Below are positions 3,925-12,731 of a stretch of 64,000 nucleotides of DNA, piece after piece. The notes under the pieces were generated by a model, which made no database searches, was not told where the DNA came from, and worked only from the letters and a program-made list of their open reading frames with translations. A program made the translations under genes and the position numbers. The DNA is taken from positions 9,897 through 73,896 of the forward strand of contig CAZEJU010000003.1 in NCBI GenBank assembly GCA_964512695.1, read 5' to 3'. Each line of letters opens with the position of its first letter. The stretch's first letter is position 1. The stretch comes from an uncultured Gammaproteobacteria bacterium (lineage in GTDB: Bacteria > Patescibacteriota > Microgenomatia > Levybacterales > UBA12049).

Positions 3925-4401
3925 ATGAAAAAGACAATCTTTATATGGGCTCTATTACTCTTCCTTTTCGTCGAGTTCCTTCTAGTTATTTCCCCAGGTG
4001 ATATGAAAGTAACAAATTCTAACGTTTTACCTACTCAAACTATTAATCTAGCAAGTGATCAAAAAAATAAAGAAACACAATCTCTTAAAAAAGAAATCCT
4101 TAAAGAAGGAACAGGGACAGCAGTAAAAATCGGTGATACCGCCCTCGTACATTACAAGGGAACGTTAACAGATGGAACAGAATTTGATAGTTCATTTAAG
4201 AGAAATGAACCTTTTTCTGTCACATTGGGAACAAATCAGGTTATTAAAGGCTGGGAAGAAGGTATCCCAGGAATGAAGATAGGCGAGAAACGAAAACTTA
4301 CTATTCCCCCTAGCTTAGGCTATGGTGAATCTGGTTCACCACCTGTCATCCCACCTAATGCTACACTTATTTTTGAAGTTGAGCTGATTGATATTAAATA
4401 A
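3925..4401 (+). CDS. FKBP-type peptidyl-prolyl cis-trans isomerase, secreted or membrane-anchored
   Basis: N-terminal hydrophobic signal. The FKBP core is [16 protein letters not shown]...[24 protein letters not shown]...[14 protein letters not shown]. Confidence 0.85.
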
Positions 4402-5428
4402 TTCTCTGCGTAGTTTTTTGCATAATTTGTTCTTTAATAGTTTTTTCCCTCTCACGTTTAATAGCATAATCAATGATAGCTAGAATAAAAAGATTGGGAA
4501 GTAATGTACTCAAAGCGTAAAACTGAAAACTATAAAAAAGGAAAAACTGCGTTAAAAAGATGAAAATCATCACTGCAATTTTAAATTGACTATATGCACG
4601 GAGTCGTGAAGATCTCAGTAAAAAAAATCCTTCTAAAATAAAAACTGCTGCCACCAATGCAGTTATGAGAACTCCCCATTTATCAAATGATAAATAAATA
4701 CGAGCAGCAATGCTATAAGAGATAAGACCTATCGCTAAAGCTGCTTGTAATAAAAGAAAAAATATAACAAAACGGGCAAGTAAAAAAGACTTTGTCATAA
4801 ATTGGTAAATGCTTCTTAATTTCCGACGAAATATAAGAAAATAGCCAGGTTTTTTTGGTTGTATTGCTTCAATTTTTGATAATAACTCATATAACCATTG
4901 AGCAATAGGATCACTTAAATCAGATTTCTGTAAATATTCAAAGGCAAGTCTTTCCTCCTCGACATCCAAATCATTAATCACAGCTTCCTGAGTCATATCT
5001 AAGGCGTTGATCAAATATTCTTTTTTTGAATATGCACGGTACTGAGGAATCATACGAAAAAGAAGAAAGAGTAGAATAAAAATTACGTAAATAATTGCAA
5101 CAGCTGGTTGAAAAAAATAATTATTATCGCTTGTTAAAAACTTACCTAATTCATCGATAAATGCACCGAAACCGATTCCACCAATAACTGCTGCTAGCTG
5201 CATCGCAAATCTATTAAGGAATGTTAATAAGAGAATTAATGCTGCAGTCATAAACAATCCCCCCCATAACATATGTGCAACATGTATACCTCGACCACCA
5301 AGTTGGGGATAACCTGTAATGAATAAAAAGAAACGAATTGAAAAAAGTGAGGAAATGGCAGAAACTAAAAAAATTTCTAAGAGATCATCAGCCTCGATGT
5401 TTCTTATAAATATTCCTTTTAATGACAT
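4394..5428 (-). CDS. integral membrane protein of unknown function (TM clusters at both ends, central soluble segment)
   Basis: Hydrophobicity pattern; no catalytic motif recognised. Confidence 0.45.
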
Positions 5429-6051
5429 ACCTACAGTATATCAAACTTACTCTCTTCAACTGGTTAGATTACAAAAAATGTGTTATCATTCCGATGCAAA
5501 CTATGAATAAAGCAAAAAATGAAACTCTAAAAAAACAAGCTGTTACTATCGCTTCTGAGATATCACATCTTATAACTCAATATACCCATGACAGTTTCAC
5601 CTCAAAATTCTTTCTGACCGATGAAATTGGTACAAACTTTTATATAGCAGCTGGTGGTTTTGCAGCTGTAATTTATGAACCTCAATTAGAAGCTGATGAG
5701 GTGCAAAACATTCATGCATTATCATTTTTTCTTATTCTTATTACATATGGATTCCAAATATATATTCGAGAACGTTCGCTAAGAACCAATAGCTCACCTT
5801 ACACACTACCCACAAATAAGAAAAAAATTGAAGTAGCAAATTCTGTTATCTTAGAACGAGCTGAAACAGGAAACCTGGTATCTTCTCCTCTTGCTGATGA
5901 AATAATTGAACTAACACTTATGCAAGTACAAAAAACATTACATGAAAAAGACTTTACCTTAGCTGAACACAGGTTAAATGAAAAAAAATTATACACATAT
6001 ATGACTGTATCACTGTATTTCGGTTATAATATGGCTGCAGAACTCCTCTAA
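5422..6051 (+). CDS. hypothetical protein, paralog family A (copy 1); true start probably at the internal Met near 5506
   Basis: Shares YT(H/N)DSFTSKF and I(R/K)ERS.L.N..PYTL(P/E)T blocks with the next ORF. Confidence 0.5.
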   Translation: MTYLQYIKLTLFNWLDYKKCVIIPMQTMNKAKNETLKKQAVTIASEISHLITQYTHDSFTSKFFLTDEIGTNFYIAAGGFAAVIYEPQLEADEVQNIHALSFFLILITYGFQIYIRERSLRTNSSPYTLPTNKKKIEVANSVILERAETGNLVSSPLADEIIELTLMQVQKTLHEKDFTLAEHRLNEKKLYTYMTVSLYFGYNMAAELL

Positions 6052-6173
6052 GCTCTCCCAGGTCCTCGAAAATTGGCTCTGAAACTTTGCAACTATGTAA
6101 CTCATTATAACTTCATACTTGCCAAGTGTAATTTTTCTTTTTATACTAAACATACAGGCAGAAATTACTTTCG

Positions 6174-6623
6174 ATGAAAATTTTGCCTGAACCAGCTGAC
6201 CAACAAATAATTTTAGCAACACAGATTTGGGAGGACGTCGTGCATTCGATGGGTCAGTATACAAACGATAGTTTTACTTCAAAGTTTTTACCCCCCGAAG
6301 AAATACTTACATATGTGCGCCCCATAGCATCGTCGTTTGCGCAACTTCATTACACTCCTCTACCAACAAAAAAAGAAATCTATAAATCCCATCTCTATGG
6401 AGTGTTTTATTTTCTCATTATATGTGGTATGCAAATGCATATTAAAGAACGATCAATACTAAAAAACCATGCTCCTTATACACTAGAAACTCATGAAAAA
6501 TTAATCAGAGAAGCAAAAAATCGAGTTATGAATGAACTCACCGAGGGGATAAAAGTATACCCTCCTTTAAATCACGCAATGGATATTTTCCTATCAAATG
6601 TAGCAACACCGCGAAGATTATAA
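6174..6623 (+). CDS. hypothetical protein, paralog family A (copy 2)
   Basis: Collinear similarity to 5422..6051 (QYTNDSFTSKF, HIKERSILKNHAPYTLET). Confidence 0.5.
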   Translation: MKILPEPADQQIILATQIWEDVVHSMGQYTNDSFTSKFLPPEEILTYVRPIASSFAQLHYTPLPTKKEIYKSHLYGVFYFLIICGMQMHIKERSILKNHAPYTLETHEKLIREAKNRVMNELTEGIKVYPPLNHAMDIFLSNVATPRRL

Positions 6624-6771
6624 AGATTACCTTTAAAAAATTATGAATTCGACGCAGAAAAATTTGATAAATTTCTCCCCGTCACATTGTTATGGGGGTA
6701 TCTTTTTGCAAAAGAAATAATAAAAGATAAATGATTTACTATAGCATTCATCTTCAACATAGTTTGATCGT

Positions 6772-7497
6772 ATGTCTGGAATTCATGCTATAGAATCGGG
6801 AAGAAACCTTCAGTCTTTAACAGAACCCACATCTGCTTTTTCTGTCATCTCTCTACGTCAAATTGACACCCTAAAACAGGGTCTTGAATATATTAGGGAA
6901 GAAGGCCCGAAATATCGAATACTTCCCGATTCCCATACTGCTCTAAAAGTCAGACAATATGGAACACTTTGCGATGAACATACTTTTCAAACTATAGAAA
7001 AAGGTAACTGGCGAGTAACTGTTTATGATCCTGAAGGGAAATTCAATCAAGCATACTTCACCACACCGCCAGAAGTTACATTCTTAGCACAACAGCTGAC
7101 TCCACTACAAAGATTTCGCCAACCTCCTCCTGAAGATACAAGAGCTCAAAAACATACTGCAGCACAATTATTCTTAGCTGAAAATACAAGCATTTTGGCA
7201 GAACATATTTTCTGTCAGATGGGAATAGAAAAAAAAGTAACTACTATACCGCTCCTTTTAGAACTCTGGAGTAGACCAGATTTAACTCTTTTTATACCCG
7301 ATCCACTTCTCCTTGAGATTGGATTAGGAGGTAAATTTGGAAAAGTAGAAAGGTATGTAGATGACTTTGAAAGAGTATACCCTTCTATGAAAGGACGCGT
7401 TCAGGGAGCAGTCGTTCATTACACTGTAAATGAAGAAGGGGGAAACTTACGTATATTTACATCATCACCATATACAAAGATGAAACAAGCAGCATAA
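6772..7497 (+). CDS. hypothetical protein, paralog family B (copy 1)
   Basis: Full-length collinear similarity to 7508..8197 (L.Y.R...PKY.I.P..HT...V...G........G.W.VTV.DP.G.FN.A..T..PE...LA..L...Q.F..PPE.D..AQ.HT..QLFLA.NT....E.IFC.MG). Confidence 0.55.
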   Translation: MSGIHAIESGRNLQSLTEPTSAFSVISLRQIDTLKQGLEYIREEGPKYRILPDSHTALKVRQYGTLCDEHTFQTIEKGNWRVTVYDPEGKFNQAYFTTPPEVTFLAQQLTPLQRFRQPPPEDTRAQKHTAAQLFLAENTSILAEHIFCQMGIEKKVTTIPLLLELWSRPDLTLFIPDPLLLEIGLGGKFGKVERYVDDFERVYPSMKGRVQGAVVHYTVNEEGGNLRIFTSSPYTKMKQAA

Positions 7498-7507
7498 ACA
7501 TTTAAAT

Positions 7508-8197
7508 ATGAGAACAAATGTAGAGCTAGGTTATAATTCAATAGAAACAGCAATCGTTCACGCAGACAAAAATAGGCGACAAAGATTAACAGAAGGACTA
7601 GACTATCTTCGTATGCAGATGCCTAAATACCTTATTCGTCCAGAAGGCCATACTGTTCGTGAAGTAAAAAGGTTTCATGGGACATGGCCGCAACATATTT
7701 TTGATACTGTAGGCATGGGTGGCTGGCAAGTAACGGTTATAGATCCCATTGGCCTTTTCAACCGGGCTACACTTACTCCAGCGCCAGAAATAAGCCACCT
7801 TGCAGGCGAACTAGCTATTGCTCAGGATTTTATAAAACCTCCTGAATACGATAAACATGCTCAGGAACATACGAGCGTCCAACTGTTTTTAGCTGCTAAT
7901 ACGAGAAAAATGGTTGAGAGTATCTTCTGTAATATGGGAGCTGCACCGCCAAAACATATTGCACCGTTTATTCTTGAACCAGGGCATGGACCTGATATAG
8001 TAATGCTTACTCCAGATCCATTTATTGTTGAAATAGGAAAAGAAGGTAAATTTCCTGTATTAGAAGAGTATATTAAAGAATTTCAATATCAGTATCCATA
8101 TGTAGCGGATCGTGTAACAGGAGCAGTTGTATATTATAAAAAAACAAAATCAGGTGCATCTTTAAACGTTTTTAGTAGCAGAATAGGTGTAAGCTAA
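7508..8197 (+). CDS. hypothetical protein, paralog family B (copy 2)
   Basis: Tandem duplicate of 6772..7497 after a 10-nt spacer. Confidence 0.55.
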   Translation: MRTNVELGYNSIETAIVHADKNRRQRLTEGLDYLRMQMPKYLIRPEGHTVREVKRFHGTWPQHIFDTVGMGGWQVTVIDPIGLFNRATLTPAPEISHLAGELAIAQDFIKPPEYDKHAQEHTSVQLFLAANTRKMVESIFCNMGAAPPKHIAPFILEPGHGPDIVMLTPDPFIVEIGKEGKFPVLEEYIKEFQYQYPYVADRVTGAVVYYKKTKSGASLNVFSSRIGVS

Positions 8198-8221: not shown

Positions 8222-8641
8222 ATGAAAATACTTATTGAAAACGATTTACAATATTTTATCCGCTTCGATAAAAATGAAGAGGTTCTAGAAGAACTTTCAA
8301 AACTTATCAATCTTAAGAATATACAAAGTGCATATTTTACTTGTATTGGTTCTGTAAAAGGACTCGTCCTATCTTACTACAATCTAACAACTAAACAGTA
8401 TGAAGATCATACGCTAGATGAAGATCTAGAGGTAGTAAGTATAACTGGAAATGTAGCGATTATGAATGATAAACCTGTTATTCATGCGCATGGCGTATTC
8501 TCAAAAAAAGATTTACATACTGTAGGTGGACATATAAAAAAACTACTCGTATCAGCAACATGCGAAGTATTTTTAACAAATTTATCTAATAATCTCTCCC
8601 GATCATTTGATAATGAAACAGGTCTTAATCTCCTGCAGTAA
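8222..8641 (+). CDS. PPC/DUF296-like domain protein
   Basis: C-terminal pattern SITGNVA...KPVIHAHGVFS......GGHI......EVFL matches the PCC (DUF296) fold signature. Confidence 0.45.
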   Translation: MKILIENDLQYFIRFDKNEEVLEELSKLINLKNIQSAYFTCIGSVKGLVLSYYNLTTKQYEDHTLDEDLEVVSITGNVAIMNDKPVIHAHGVFSKKDLHTVGGHIKKLLVSATCEVFLTNLSNNLSRSFDNETGLNLLQ

Positions 8642-8697: not shown

Positions 8698-9858
8698 ATG
8701 AATATATATAAAAAAGTTTCGTTATTTCTTCTCATAATCATCCTCAGCTTCATTAATGTTCGAATTTCGTATGCTGCAACAGTTAAAACAGGGGACAGTA
8801 TTTACCTTTCTGAAGAGAAACAATACGAAGATCTTTATCTTTTTGGTAGTACGATTACAGCTGAAGCACCTATAAAGAATGATCTTATTGCTGCCGGAGG
8901 AGAAGTAACTCTTAATGGAGATGTAACAGGCAGCTTAATGGCTGCCGGGGGTACTCTTACTATACGTTCAAATGTTGATAACACAATGCGTGTAGCAGCT
9001 GGAGATGTTATTATAAGCGGAACTATCACACGTGATGTATTGATAGCCGCGGGTGTAGCTCGTATTACTAAAACTGCATCTATTAGCGGTGACTTAATCT
9101 TTATAGGCAGTGAGTTAGTAGTCGAGGGCACTGTAAAAGGGAAAGTAAATGCAACGGGTGAACAAGTAACAATTAATAGTCGTGTCGGTTCTGTAGAAGG
9201 CAATATGGGTTTACTAACCCTTGGGAAAAAAACAATAATAGAGAAAGAGCTTCGGTATTCTTCGCCCACGAAAGCAGCAATTCATGAATCCGCAACTATT
9301 CAAGGAAAAACCTACTATTCAGCGGTTAAACAAGAACCTAAAAACACACAAGGTATTTTAAGAGCTTTCACTCCAGGTGCGCTTTATACTTTATTCCTTG
9401 ATATGTTGCTTTCGCTAGGAGTTGTAGTCTTCTTACCAAATTTCGTTAAAAAAATAATAGCAACTTTGTCTAAATCCCCTCTTAATTCTGCAGGAACAGG
9501 TTTCTTCTTTGTTATTTTCTGGCCGCTTCTTAGCCTGGTTATGCTCTTTCTTCTCTGGTTATCTCTCATTTCATTTCTTTTTTATGCACTTATTCTTATT
9601 ACTAGTATTTTCTTAATGAAAATTGTCGTTGGGTGGCGACTTCTTAAATGGTGGCATATGCATCAAAAAACCACAGAAAAGTATCAAATAAATAGCTGGA
9701 AAACAGCAGTAGTTGGATCAATCGCTGTGTATATACTTATGCTTATACCTATTATAGGTTGGATTATCCTTATATTTATTTATCTTTTGACTGTAGGAGC
9801 TACTGTAAAAGCATTCCTTTCCTTTGTCCAATCATCTAGGATCAGTAACAAAAAATAA
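8698..9858 (+). CDS. secreted beta-helical repeat protein (bactofilin/DUF583-like G-rich repeats) with C-terminal multi-TM anchor
   Basis: Signal peptide MNIYKKVSLFLLIIILSFINVRISYA. Repeated (V/I).G.V.G.(L/I) units (AAGGEVTLNGDVTGSLMAAGGTLTI...AAGDVIISGTITRDVLIAAGVARI). Four hydrophobic helices at the C-terminus. Confidence 0.45.
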   Translation: MNIYKKVSLFLLIIILSFINVRISYAATVKTGDSIYLSEEKQYEDLYLFGSTITAEAPIKNDLIAAGGEVTLNGDVTGSLMAAGGTLTIRSNVDNTMRVAAGDVIISGTITRDVLIAAGVARITKTASISGDLIFIGSELVVEGTVKGKVNATGEQVTINSRVGSVEGNMGLLTLGKKTIIEKELRYSSPTKAAIHESATIQGKTYYSAVKQEPKNTQGILRAFTPGALYTLFLDMLLSLGVVVFLPNFVKKIIATLSKSPLNSAGTGFFFVIFWPLLSLVMLFLLWLSLISFLFYALILITSIFLMKIVVGWRLLKWWHMHQKTTEKYQINSWKTAVVGSIAVYILMLIPIIGWIILIFIYLLTVGATVKAFLSFVQSSRISNKK

Positions 9859-9859
9859 A

Positions 9860-10492
9860 ATGAAAATTACAAAATATCTACATTCTTGTTTACTTGTTGA
9901 AGAGCAAGGAAAAATTGTACTAATAGATCCTGGTCAGTATACTTATGATGCAAAAGTGTTTCCGCTAGCTACAATCCCGCAAATAGATACTCTGGTGATA
10001 ACTCACGAGCATATAGACCATTTTTCTATACCATTTATAAAAGATATTATTGCCAGATTTCCAAATATCGAAATTTTTAGTAATGAATCTGTTGTCGCTC
10101 TTCTTGATAAAGAAGGCATTGCCGCAACTTCAGATGGCAATGAATATATAACATTACAACCAGTGCCTCATGAAGATGTAGTGATAGCTGTACCACCCCA
10201 GAATGTACTACTTACCGTATTTGGAAAATTCGCAGATCCAGGTGATTCGCATCATTTTTCCACAAACGCACCCATCCTTGCTCTTCCTATACAAGCTCCA
10301 TGGGGTAGTTTTGCTGATGCACTAAAGCTTGCGGAAGAAATTAGCCCGCAGTATGTTATTCCCATTCATGACTGGCATTGGAAAGATGACGTGAGAAAGG
10401 GAATGTACCAACGTGCAGCAGAATATTTACAACAGTCAGATATTCAATTCAAAGGATTAGAAACTGGGGAAACAATAGAATTAGCAATTTAA
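9860..10492 (+). CDS. MBL-fold metallo-hydrolase
   Basis: HxHxDH motif (VITHEHIDHF) and later His/Asp ligands. Start placed at MKITKY, just after the upstream stop. Confidence 0.75.
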   Translation: MKITKYLHSCLLVEEQGKIVLIDPGQYTYDAKVFPLATIPQIDTLVITHEHIDHFSIPFIKDIIARFPNIEIFSNESVVALLDKEGIAATSDGNEYITLQPVPHEDVVIAVPPQNVLLTVFGKFADPGDSHHFSTNAPILALPIQAPWGSFADALKLAEEISPQYVIPIHDWHWKDDVRKGMYQRAAEYLQQSDIQFKGLETGETIELAI

Positions 10493-10493
10493 A

Positions 10494-11009
10494 TCACCTC
10501 AAGAAATTTTCTTCTTTCGGTTCTTGAATTATCTTACTAAAAATAAACTCGTCATTTCCAAACCATGATTTTTTATGGAAACCCACCATCTCAAAACCCA
10601 TTTTTTCATAAAAATTTTTATTCCTCTTATCAGCATATAAATAGAGATTATGTCCGCCTAGCTCTACTATCCTTTCTTCCCAATTTTTTAATAAATTTTT
10701 ACCTATCCCTTTTCTTCGAAATTTCGGATCTACCATAAGCCAAATAGCCAAGCTTACACCAGCAAAAGGATATTCCGCTTCTAAAAAGCCTACGAGCTCT
10801 TCATTCTTAAAAGCACCCAGCAGTATTCTTGTATGGTTTTTAAGAATGGATTCAAAATTTTCTTTGTTCCACATTCGTGGACTTGTTAGCATATACTTTT
10901 TTGATCTTGCTGAGTATTCAGCAAACTCTGCTAGTAAAACAGAAGAAAAAAAATCGAAAAAAATATCTAGCTCTGATAATGCTAGTTGTCTAATCTGCAG
11001 ATTTCTCAT
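10494..11009 (-). CDS. GNAT family N-acetyltransferase
   Basis: Acetyl-CoA binding motif VDPKFRRKGIGKNLL. Confidence 0.75.
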   Translation of the reverse strand: MRNLQIRQLALSELDIFFDFFSSVLLAEFAEYSARSKKYMLTSPRMWNKENFESILKNHTRILLGAFKNEELVGFLEAEYPFAGVSLAIWLMVDPKFRRKGIGKNLLKNWEERIVELGGHNLYLYADKRNKNFYEKMGFEMVGFHKKSWFGNDEFIFSKIIQEPKEENFLR

Positions 11010-11827
11010 TTTACCCGTTTGTTCTCTAAGAGTAAGTTTATAACAACTGCCACTCCTTCTTCTTTATACGAAGGAGCTATATAATCTGCAATTGCTTTTA
11101 ATGCTTCATTTGCATTTTCCATAGCTATTTTATAGCCACAGGCAGTCAATAGCGGGTAGTCGTTATAACCGTCCCCAATGCCAATTACTTCTTCTTCCTT
11201 CAGCCCAAGCATTTTCATTAGCAACAGTACTCCCATATGTTTTGTCGCTTTTATTGAAGTTATATCCCATCCTTTACCTGCTGGGCTACTTGAATCTATA
11301 AAAGAAAGTCTTTTCGATTTCGTGCTAAGCATCTCTTCAACTATCTTTTGCTTAGCAATATCTTTAATAGCGCTTACATGTATTTTTGGTATATCAGCAA
11401 CCACCAGATCTTTAATGTCTTTAAATATATATGGACCATATCCCTTAAATAGGAAAGCATCCGGTGTATAGGCGACATCTTTTTTTTCGACTGCGAACAT
11501 TATACCTTCTTCTAGAAACAGTTTTATTAGTTCTCTAACATCACTATCTGGCATATATTCTATATGCAATGTCTTTCCAGACTGCGGGTCGACTATTTCA
11601 GCACCACCGCGCGTTATAATAGGATTTGTTAGAGCAAGAAGCCTACATGTTTGTTGCAGTATTCCTGGAAATGCTCTTCCAGAAGCAATTGAAAAAATAG
11701 ATTGAGAGTCTACCCATCGTTTAATCGCAGCTTTTACCTTTAATGGAATCTGAAAGTCTGAACCTGCTAGTGTTCCATCGAAGTCGCTTATGATGGCTTT
11801 ATACTTTTTTGAATTTTGAAGATTCAT
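11006..11827 (-). CDS. Cof-type HAD-IIB family hydrolase (sugar phosphatase-like)
   Basis: Motif I AIISDFDGTL, motif IV GIGDGYNDYPLL, YbiV/Cof-like length. Confidence 0.8.
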   Translation of the reverse strand: MNLQNSKKYKAIISDFDGTLAGSDFQIPLKVKAAIKRWVDSQSIFSIASGRAFPGILQQTCRLLALTNPIITRGGAEIVDPQSGKTLHIEYMPDSDVRELIKLFLEEGIMFAVEKKDVAYTPDAFLFKGYGPYIFKDIKDLVVADIPKIHVSAIKDIAKQKIVEEMLSTKSKRLSFIDSSSPAGKGWDITSIKATKHMGVLLLMKMLGLKEEEVIGIGDGYNDYPLLTACGYKIAMENANEALKAIADYIAPSYKEEGVAVVINLLLENKRVK

Positions 11828-12294
11828 TAACGCTTTGGAGATTGCTTTCTTCTTCGGGCTTTACCACCTGTGCCGACCTTTCGTCGTTCACGTACACGAT
11901 CATCTCGTGTAAGAAAGCCTTTCTTCTTTAGCAAGGGTCTATATTCATCTGGCTCTAATGCTGCTAAAGCACGGGAAATACCTGAAGCTACAGCTTCTAA
12001 CTGACCTTCAATACCTCCTCCAACTACTCTAATAGTAAACGCATATTTATTTTGAGCATTTACCACACGGAGAGGCTCACTGTACGTCCTTCGCATTACC
12101 TCACTAGAAAAATATTCAGTAATAGGTTTCTCATTTACTAGCATTTCTCCTTTTACAATAGGTTGTTGATTCCAAACAGCATCAGGCTTAACACTTGTAT
12201 AAAGACGTACTCGTGCTACCGCTTGTTTCCGGCGACCAACTGCAAATATATAATCCTTTTTTTGTTGTTTTGTTTGTTTAACTTGTTCTACCAT
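11827..12294 (-). CDS. rpsI: 30S ribosomal protein S9
   Basis: C-terminal GGG.EGQ..A...GISRAL......R..LKK.G.LTRD.R..ERRK.G..KARR..Q.SKR. Confidence 0.9.
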   Translation of the reverse strand: MVEQVKQTKQQKKDYIFAVGRRKQAVARVRLYTSVKPDAVWNQQPIVKGEMLVNEKPITEYFSSEVMRRTYSEPLRVVNAQNKYAFTIRVVGGGIEGQLEAVASGISRALAALEPDEYRPLLKKKGFLTRDDRVRERRKVGTGGKARRRKQSPKR

Positions 12295-12308
12295 ATAATT
12301 TTTGAATT

Positions 12309-12731
12309 TTAACTTTTAAATTTATCATTGTATGTATGTTGTTCACCCGAGAAAATAAATAAACGCTTCATCATACTGGCAGCAAGTTTATTATCAGGTA
12401 ACATACCTTTTACTGCATGTCGAATAATCTCCTCAGGTTTTCGCTCCCGTAACTCACGTAACGTTTCTGATCGATATCCTCCTGGATACCCAGAGTGTCT
12501 TACATATGTCTTCTGTTCTTCCTTCTTACCTGTTACATTAACATCTTTAGCATTCGTAATAACCACATAATCACCACAGTCAAGATTACGAACAAAGTAC
12601 GGTTTGCTTTTACCCATTAGTAATTGTGCAATCTCTGTCGCGAATCTACCTAAAGTTTTTCCTCGAGCATCTCGTAAATGCCATGCTCTCTCAACTGTAC
12701 CTATTTTTGTAGGAACTGTAATCCCATTCAT
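12309..12731 (-). CDS. rplM: 50S ribosomal protein L13
   Basis: RAWHLRDARGKTLGRFATEIAQLLMGK...DCGDYVVITNA. Confidence 0.9.
   Translation of the reverse strand: MNGITVPTKIGTVERAWHLRDARGKTLGRFATEIAQLLMGKSKPYFVRNLDCGDYVVITNAKDVNVTGKKEEQKTYVRHSGYPGGYRSETLRELRERKPEEIIRHAVKGMLPDNKLAASMMKRLFIFSGEQHTYNDKFKS

Follow-up and report, generated by a model that had tools for sequence, protein, structure and literature searches.

Two unrelated families of tandemly duplicated genes in a Patescibacteria contig, one with a predicted PD-(D/E)XK-like fold and a conserved PCC/DUF296 neighbor

The genes at the locus

The window, that is, the whole 64,000-nucleotide stretch of contig CAZEJU010000003.1 analyzed here, carries two tandem pairs of hypothetical genes, A1–A2 and B1–B2, followed on the same strand by a gene for a PCC domain protein (also PPC; DUF296). 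We find that the pairs are two unrelated gene families and not one accessory locus: family A consists of unremarkable conserved hypothetical proteins from this lineage, and family B is a rare family tied to the PCC gene, whose C-terminal region most likely adopts, judging from a structure model, a PD-(D/E)XK (restriction-endonuclease-like) fold. The genes in question are the following.

4394 to 5428, minus strand: membrane protein 'M', 344 amino acids; multi-pass and conserved, the divergent neighbor of A1.
5494 to 6051, plus strand: A1, the ancestral copy of family A, 185 amino acids; its start is the Met at 5494, in an open reading frame (ORF) that opens at 5422.
6174 to 6734, plus strand: A2, diverged paralogue of family A, read here as 186 codons; it has an in-frame TAA at 6621–6623, and the called ORF ends at 6623.
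6772 to 7497, plus strand: B1, family B, 241 amino acids; a predicted PD-(D/E)XK-like C-terminal domain (residues ~123–230) with an N-terminal helix and beta-hairpin.
7508 to 8197, plus strand: B2, family B paralogue, 229 amino acids; begins 10 bp after B1 and keeps all family-invariant residues.
8222 to 8641, plus strand: PCC/PPC gene (DUF296, PF03479); begins 24 bp after B2, the conserved partner of family B.

All four ORFs of the two pairs are present as originally predicted, and both pairs are real: in BLASTP comparisons A1 and A2 share 38% identity over 118 amino acids (E 6e-23), and B1 and B2 share 43% over 198 amino acids without a gap (E 2e-59). The proteins were scanned against Pfam, NCBIfam, PADLOC, PHROGs and PDB sequences, and every member of both families was scanned at E ≤ 10. 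The statement that neither family has a recognizable domain stands at the level of sequence: none of the four proteins gave a significant match in these collections, PDB profiles included, and the members of the two families gave only faint, non-recurrent matches to Pfam, NCBIfam, PADLOC and PHROGs (e.g., TsiV3, DUF2914 and Mlh1_C).

Family B is rare and under purifying selection

Family B has eight true members: B1, B2, their two orthologues at locus L001, the proteins P0022, P0023 and P0025, and the shorter P0024. This count comes from searches that covered up to 15 billion proteins. A word-indexed search of 5.8 billion clusters returned only B1 itself and one homologue with 62% identity; a profile search run exhaustively over 1.84 billion representatives matched six proteins, one of them spurious; and a profile search with the enlarged B alignment added one more member, P0025. 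No further members turned up among GTDB species-representative genomes, JGI metagenome contigs, IMG/VR, INPHARED phages or PLSDB plasmids. The spurious match, P0021, an IPT/TIG repeat protein of 746 amino acids, was rejected as a homologue because its similarity to B is confined to the 30-residue GxWxVTVxxPxG hairpin; the B profile matched it eight times, via the motif GGTWTVTVVNPSG. The N-terminal hairpin of family B, GxWxVTVxDPxG, resembles the terminal beta-hairpin found in Ig-like TIG domains, and the faint DUF2914 matches have the same cause.

The duplication of B is specific to the lineage of the window and L001, that is, it occurred before these two split and after their common lineage had separated from relatives that have a single copy. 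B1 and B2 are 62–63% identical to their L001 orthologues (B2 and its orthologue P0020, 63%), and the PCC proteins of the two loci are 64% identical. The ratio of non-synonymous to synonymous substitution rates (dN/dS) between paralogues was uninformative because synonymous sites are saturated, so orthologues were compared instead; this gave values of ~0.08–0.14 for the two families, with 0.10–0.14 for B1 and B2 (dS is saturated here too). Both B1 and B2 are under purifying selection. Neither has a signal peptide or a transmembrane segment by a crude hydropathy test: the maximum over 19-residue Kyte-Doolittle windows is 1.13 for B1 and 0.85 for B2, and neither has a hydrophobic N-terminus.

Family B is linked to the PCC gene

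The gene at 8222–8641 matches PF03479 with 102.1 bits (cutoff 25) over profile positions 3–116 of 117, and its relatives in the PDB include 2h6l (E 3.6e-20), 3htn, 3hwu and 2dt4. A PCC gene lies directly downstream of B in five of the six contigs that carry the family (the window, L001, L003, L008 and the JGI 3300045391 contig). In these the PCC gene encodes 139 amino acids, and the spacer between B and PCC ranges from an overlap to 24 bp. The adjacency holds down to 21–24% identity between the B proteins and 46–47% between the PCC proteins, with unrelated genes upstream. The weakest family member, P0024, is the only B without an adjoining PCC gene. On the plus strand between A2 and PCC there is no terminator-like site, and no convincing promoters were found inside the A2–B1–B2–PCC block; B is probably co-transcribed with the downstream PCC gene.

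The presence of B at this site is sporadic. In L002, a 225-kb contig (GCA_041906785.1) from the closest syntenic relative, whose gene order matches the window across this stretch, only 20 bp separate A2 from PCC and B is missing, that is, B is an insertion relative to L002. (A 225-amino-acid gene upstream of PCC in L002 was suspected to be a B; it was rejected, as it is the A2 orthologue.) B is lacking at 38 other PCC loci: 36 metagenomic loci, L009 and L002; apart from the A genes of L002, none of these has A either. A single-sequence PCC scan of genomes yielded just one distant locus. In a neighbor-joining tree of PCC proteins the B-linked PCCs all fall in one subclade, where they are interspersed with B-less members; B is missing from the same PCC-upstream site in L002, L014, L012/13, L016 and L034, all of that subclade. 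PCC genes of another clade have a different neighbor: a highly conserved single-domain CheY-like response-regulator receiver of ~125 amino acids immediately precedes PCC in 14 of the 36 metagenomic loci (L010, L011, L015, L017, L020–L022, L025, L027, L028, L030–L032 and L045), an arrangement that may hint independently at what PCC does.

A gene found sporadically at a fixed site among relatives has the distribution of a homing gene, and B could accordingly be a selfish, free-standing homing-endonuclease-like gene that inserts repeatedly, or is maintained, just upstream of PCC and cuts alleles that lack it. We regard this as improbable. The sequence on either side of B shows no repeats or mobile-element signatures, and the short spacers have been kept in both the window and L001; no relatives of B were found among phages, plasmids or viruses (IMG/VR). 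From the window to L001, B and PCC have diverged to a similar degree; B is under purifying selection, and its two tandem copies have been retained stably since before the window and L001 split. The family is also extremely rare for a mobile gene, and its GC content is only slightly elevated: B1 and B2 have 38–39%, and A1, A2, PCC and the membrane-protein gene have 31–34% (35% for the window as a whole). This is a mild deviation that is compatible with a foreign origin and is not decisive.

A predicted PD-(D/E)XK-like fold in family B

An AlphaFold2 model of B, built on a seven-sequence alignment, has a mean predicted local distance difference test score (pLDDT) of 64 and a predicted template modeling score of 0.62; residues ~68–234 have pLDDT values of ~70–87. 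DSSP assigns helix α1 to residues 123–147, β1 to 159–163, β2 to 171–175, β3 to 177–183, helix α2 to 188–202, β4 to 211–220 and β5 to 223–229. In this model, made from only seven sequences, the order α-β-β-β-α-β is the topology of the PD-(D/E)XK core. Its structural neighbors include four Hjc resolvases (82–84 residues at ~3 Å), NucS and UPF0102; N.BspD6I and its small subunit, BpuSI, FokI, MspI, NgoMIV, HindIII, SdaI and PaqCI; Cas4 proteins, lambda-exonuclease-like enzymes, VRR-NUC, YaeQ, Dna2 and Can2; and a bunyaviral cap-snatching endonuclease. With this model, the C-terminal ~110 residues of B most likely adopt the PD-(D/E)XK fold.

The conserved residues of the family map onto the same elements. 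P87, H128, Q132, N138, E182, I183, G184, K188, Y195 and Y217 are invariant, and D170 is present in seven of the eight members (the alignment of P0024 is ambiguous at this position); both B1 and B2 retain every invariant residue. In the model, H128, Q132 and N138 lie on α1, P169–D170 immediately before β2, E182–I183–G184 at the end of β3, K188 at the N-terminus of α2, Y195 on α2 and Y217 on β4. The canonical Asp and Glu are thus present with a spacing like that of Hjc, and the Asp belongs to a conserved 'PD' that precedes β2. The putative site would comprise His128 and Gln132 on α1, Pro-Asp170 before β2, Glu182 on β3 and Lys188 at the start of α2. The original proposal that invariant His, Thr, Asp and Cys positions in family B could mark an active site survives in part: an active site is plausible, but the more distant members of the family do not keep Cys148, His55, Thr129 and Asp86. 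The conserved set is His, Gln, Asn, Asp, Glu, Lys and Tyr, and the proposed Cys and Thr do not extend to the whole family.

Some observations weigh against assigning B to this superfamily as a nuclease. No B member has a sequence or profile match to any curated PD-(D/E)XK family in Pfam, NCBIfam, PADLOC or PHROGs, and a PDB profile search with B gave a chance match only; the (D/E)-x-K motif expected on β3 is incomplete, with the invariant Gly184 at the +2 position where the superfamily has Lys; the invariant Lys188 lies four residues later, on the start of α2. Helix α1 likewise has His, Gln and Asn in place of the usual acidic residue. Compared with the minimal members of the superfamily, that is, Hjc (1ob8, 1gef, 2wcw), UPF0102/YraN (3fov) and NucS (2vld), B has no detectable sequence or profile similarity and has an additional N-terminal region of ~120 residues with the helix and GxWxVTVxDPxG hairpin; unlike members of the superfamily, its gene is tied to a PCC gene. 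In its His and displaced Lys it may resemble the His-containing cap-snatching endonucleases (the influenza PA-Nter domain and the N-terminal domain of bunyavirus L, e.g., that of Ebinur Lake virus, 7ewu). PA-Nter uses His41, Glu80, Asp108 and Glu119, with the catalytic Lys134 borne by a helix, and the sequence position of the lysine varies across PD-(D/E)XK nucleases (PMC3893164).

These departures raise the possibility that B has the fold and is catalytically dead, with B1 and B2 forming a heterodimeric scaffold that binds nucleic acid or serves as a structural or regulatory partner of PCC. The loss of the strand-borne Lys to Gly184, the lack of an acidic residue on α1 and the lack of a sequence-level match to any active nuclease family all fit this explanation, and inactive PD-(D/E)XK domains are known, e.g., the PA-Nter domains of thogotoviruses (PMC3893164). 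However, D170, E182, K188, H128, Q132, Y195 and Y217 are kept down to ~20% identity, as is typical of a functional site, and active enzymes provide precedents both for a Lys carried on a helix and for a His as metal ligand (PMC3893164). We consider a dead fold unlikely, though it deserves to be kept in view.

It is also conceivable that the fold prediction misleads and that B is a lineage-restricted orphan of some other function, its adjacency to PCC being gene order inherited within a single Patescibacteria lineage, with occasional loss. The mean pLDDT and the depth of the alignment are in keeping with this, as are two negative searches: Foldseek of the model against the PDB gave nothing significant, its only compact superpositions being on Hna, UPF0102 and Hjc; and hhalign of the B profile with an approximate Pyrococcus furiosus Hjc sequence did not align the nuclease core. 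So, too, are the restriction of B-linked PCC genes to a single PCC subclade and the variation of PCC neighbors by clade, with the CheY-like receiver elsewhere. We judge this explanation distinctly unlikely.

Family A belongs to the conserved chromosomal backbone

Approximately 17 homologues of family A were found, each of 182–210 amino acids; one of them carries the source label 'Patescibacteria group bacterium,' and the family is lineage-specific, confined to one subgroup within the Patescibacteria. The homologues all begin at the Met that corresponds to the internal Met at 5494 of A1, so A1 is the 185-amino-acid product of 5494–6051; a start at 5422 would overlap the divergent membrane-protein gene. 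The more distant relatives L005, L006 and L007 have a single A gene, in a conserved neighborhood of recA/recX ... FKBP ... MBL. A1 is 49% and 45% identical to the gene of these single-copy relatives and A2 only ~30%; judged by these identities, the single-copy gene has its orthologue in A1, and A2 is an old, diverged paralogue. L002 also carries both A1 and A2, so the duplication of A is older than the split between the window and L002. Copy number differs for the two families: A is single in most relatives, L005, L006 and L007 among them, and double in L002, and B is single in some relatives and absent in L002.

Family A is modeled confidently as an all-alpha bundle and reads as a soluble protein of the cytoplasm. 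Most of its conserved motifs (QYTHDSxTSKFFL, RERS, APYTLP and SLYxGYN) fall within two loops and the final helix of this model and may point to a putative binding site. By the same crude hydropathy test, neither A1 nor A2 has a signal peptide or a convincing transmembrane helix (maximum 1.73, internal, for A1 and 1.22 for A2).

The divergently transcribed neighbor of A1, the membrane protein at 4394–5428 on the minus strand, has several hydrophobic 19-residue windows (Kyte-Doolittle values up to 2.85) and no match in Pfam or NCBIfam. It is 68% identical to its L002 orthologue, and an orthologue with 47% identity adjoins the single A gene in L005 and L006 and lies near A in L007 (the loci examined were L005 8001–9577 and L007 8001–10980). 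The relative order of the two genes is inverted between lineages; because their adjacency or proximity persists in distant relatives despite this inversion, the two may form a functional pair, and we suggest, with low confidence, that family A is a cytoplasmic partner of the membrane protein.

The end of A2 is interrupted. A TAA at 6621–6623 stands where the L001 and L002 orthologues have Glu (GAA), and the 36 codons after it stay in frame (RLPLKNYEFDAEKFDKFLPVTLLWGYLFAKEIIKDK, then a stop). The L002 orthologue reads through to a C-terminus that ends in ERLPLKNFEFDSAKFDKFLPVTLLWGYLFARGIIIDK before its stop, and the same tail is also encoded in L001. The A2 tail has 83% amino acid identity to the orthologous C-terminus in L002, with pN 0.12 and pS 0.60. 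Because the codons after the TAA are conserved, with far fewer non-synonymous than synonymous differences, A2 is best read as a 186-codon gene (6174–6734) with a premature TAA, whereas the deposited assembly calls a 149-amino-acid product. The TAA may be a very recent nonsense mutation, a sequence or assembly error, or a site of read-through. An independent assembly, the Logan contigs from SRR8893623, represents this organism or one nearly identical to it. Its contig L046 runs out at codon 138 of A2 and L048 begins within B1, so the assembly is interrupted exactly where A2 ends and B1 starts, at about window positions 6590–6955, and the A2 TAA is not covered; strain heterogeneity or low coverage at this point could be the cause.

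Surface, host-interaction and immunity roles

The original prediction viewed the four genes as a fast-evolving accessory locus, possibly of surface, host-interaction or immunity proteins. Its accessory character holds for B, which is patchy (missing from L002 among the 38 B-less PCC loci), but not for A, which lies in the conserved chromosomal backbone. Because A sits in that backbone beside the membrane protein, and B keeps the downstream PCC gene as its conserved partner whether or not A is present, the pairs do not constitute one locus. Rapid evolution is contradicted by the identities to L002 orthologues: A1 (72%) and A2 (74%) are conserved as well as FKBP (73%) and the MBL-fold protein (77%) and better than PspC (62%) and PCC (58%), with the membrane protein at 68%, GNAT at 61% and the ribosomal proteins and RpoA at 81–88%; and B, as noted above, diverges from L001 about as much as PCC does. 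Family A, with a dN/dS of ~0.08 (orthologue comparison, with dS saturated), is under purifying selection as well.

The duplications, the lack of recognizable domains, the patchiness of B and the envelope-related neighbors (PspC and a DUF8173/bactofilin-like membrane protein) are what this reading has in its favor. However, none of A1, A2, B1 and B2 has a signal peptide or transmembrane segment, which speaks against a surface or host-interaction role. Immunity receives no support either: there is no PADLOC match (E < 0.01) and no PHROG match, nor any association with phages, plasmids or viruses, and the neighbors of A and B are housekeeping genes (FKBP, PspC, MBL-fold and ribosomal proteins) with no defense-island context. 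With divergence equal to or below that of the neighboring genes, dN/dS of ~0.1, and an A gene that is single-copy and syntenic across distant relatives, we hold a fast-evolving surface or immunity locus to be highly improbable.

Other features of the window

The genes of the window encode PspC, FKBP, the multi-pass membrane protein, PCC, the bactofilin-like/DUF8173 membrane protein, an MBL-fold protein, GNAT, S9, L13, L17 and RpoA; no tRNA or Rfam element was found in it. The MBL-fold ORF at 9824–10492 is listed with a TTG start that overlaps the preceding gene; its 210-amino-acid L002 orthologue suggests that the true start is the ATG at ~9860 (MKITKYLH...). Two genes distinguish the window and L002 in this stretch: a HAD-like ORF at 11006–11827 on the minus strand of the window, between GNAT and S9, has no counterpart in L002, and a UvrD-like helicase gene at 10602–12428 on the minus strand of L002, between its A1 and A2, is lacking in the window.

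Discussion

We propose that family B forms a new and highly divergent family with the PD-(D/E)XK fold, probably a nuclease or nucleic-acid handler that works with PCC, duplicated here to a probable B1/B2 heterodimer; of the readings considered this is the likeliest, at about even odds taken as a whole. B would be a cytoplasmic nuclease that depends on divalent metal, or failing that a module that handles nucleic acid, and would act together with the PCC protein encoded immediately downstream. Its tandem duplication may have converted a homodimer into a B1/B2 heterodimer, which fits because both copies have kept all of the conserved residues under purifying selection. New PD-(D/E)XK families are found regularly, and duplication-derived heterodimeric nucleases are known, e.g., the large and small subunits of R.BspD6I and the heteromeric archaeal tRNA-splicing endonucleases. 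Unlike in these, the B1/B2 heterodimer is putative, and the single-copy relatives show that one B suffices. A more ambitious version, in which a His-dependent PD-(D/E)XK nuclease made up of B1 and B2 as a heterodimer works on DNA or RNA in complex with a trimeric PCC/DUF296 protein, that is, a new two-component module that processes nucleic acid for repair, defense or selfish homing at the PCC locus, is in our estimation very doubtful.

Apart from the B–PCC coupling, which is the one useful lead, the result is chiefly a correction: this locus is no fast-evolving surface or immunity cassette. If the fold assignment is right, family B would add to the PD-(D/E)XK superfamily a very divergent branch from the poorly characterized Patescibacteria, with a variant site that has a His and a relocated Lys. 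The partner is of wider interest. Prokaryotic PCC proteins (DUF296, PF03479, COG1661) are widespread and have several solved structures, and they are labeled merely as 'putative DNA-binding protein,' a label that derives from their plant AT-hook relatives; the literature we found on PCC function concerns the plant AHL proteins only, plus unannotated structural-genomics entries. A partner with a nuclease fold would be a concrete, testable clue that PCC acts on nucleic acids, and a complex of PCC with the B heterodimer, if it exists, would offer a first way into the function of the prokaryotic PCC domain.

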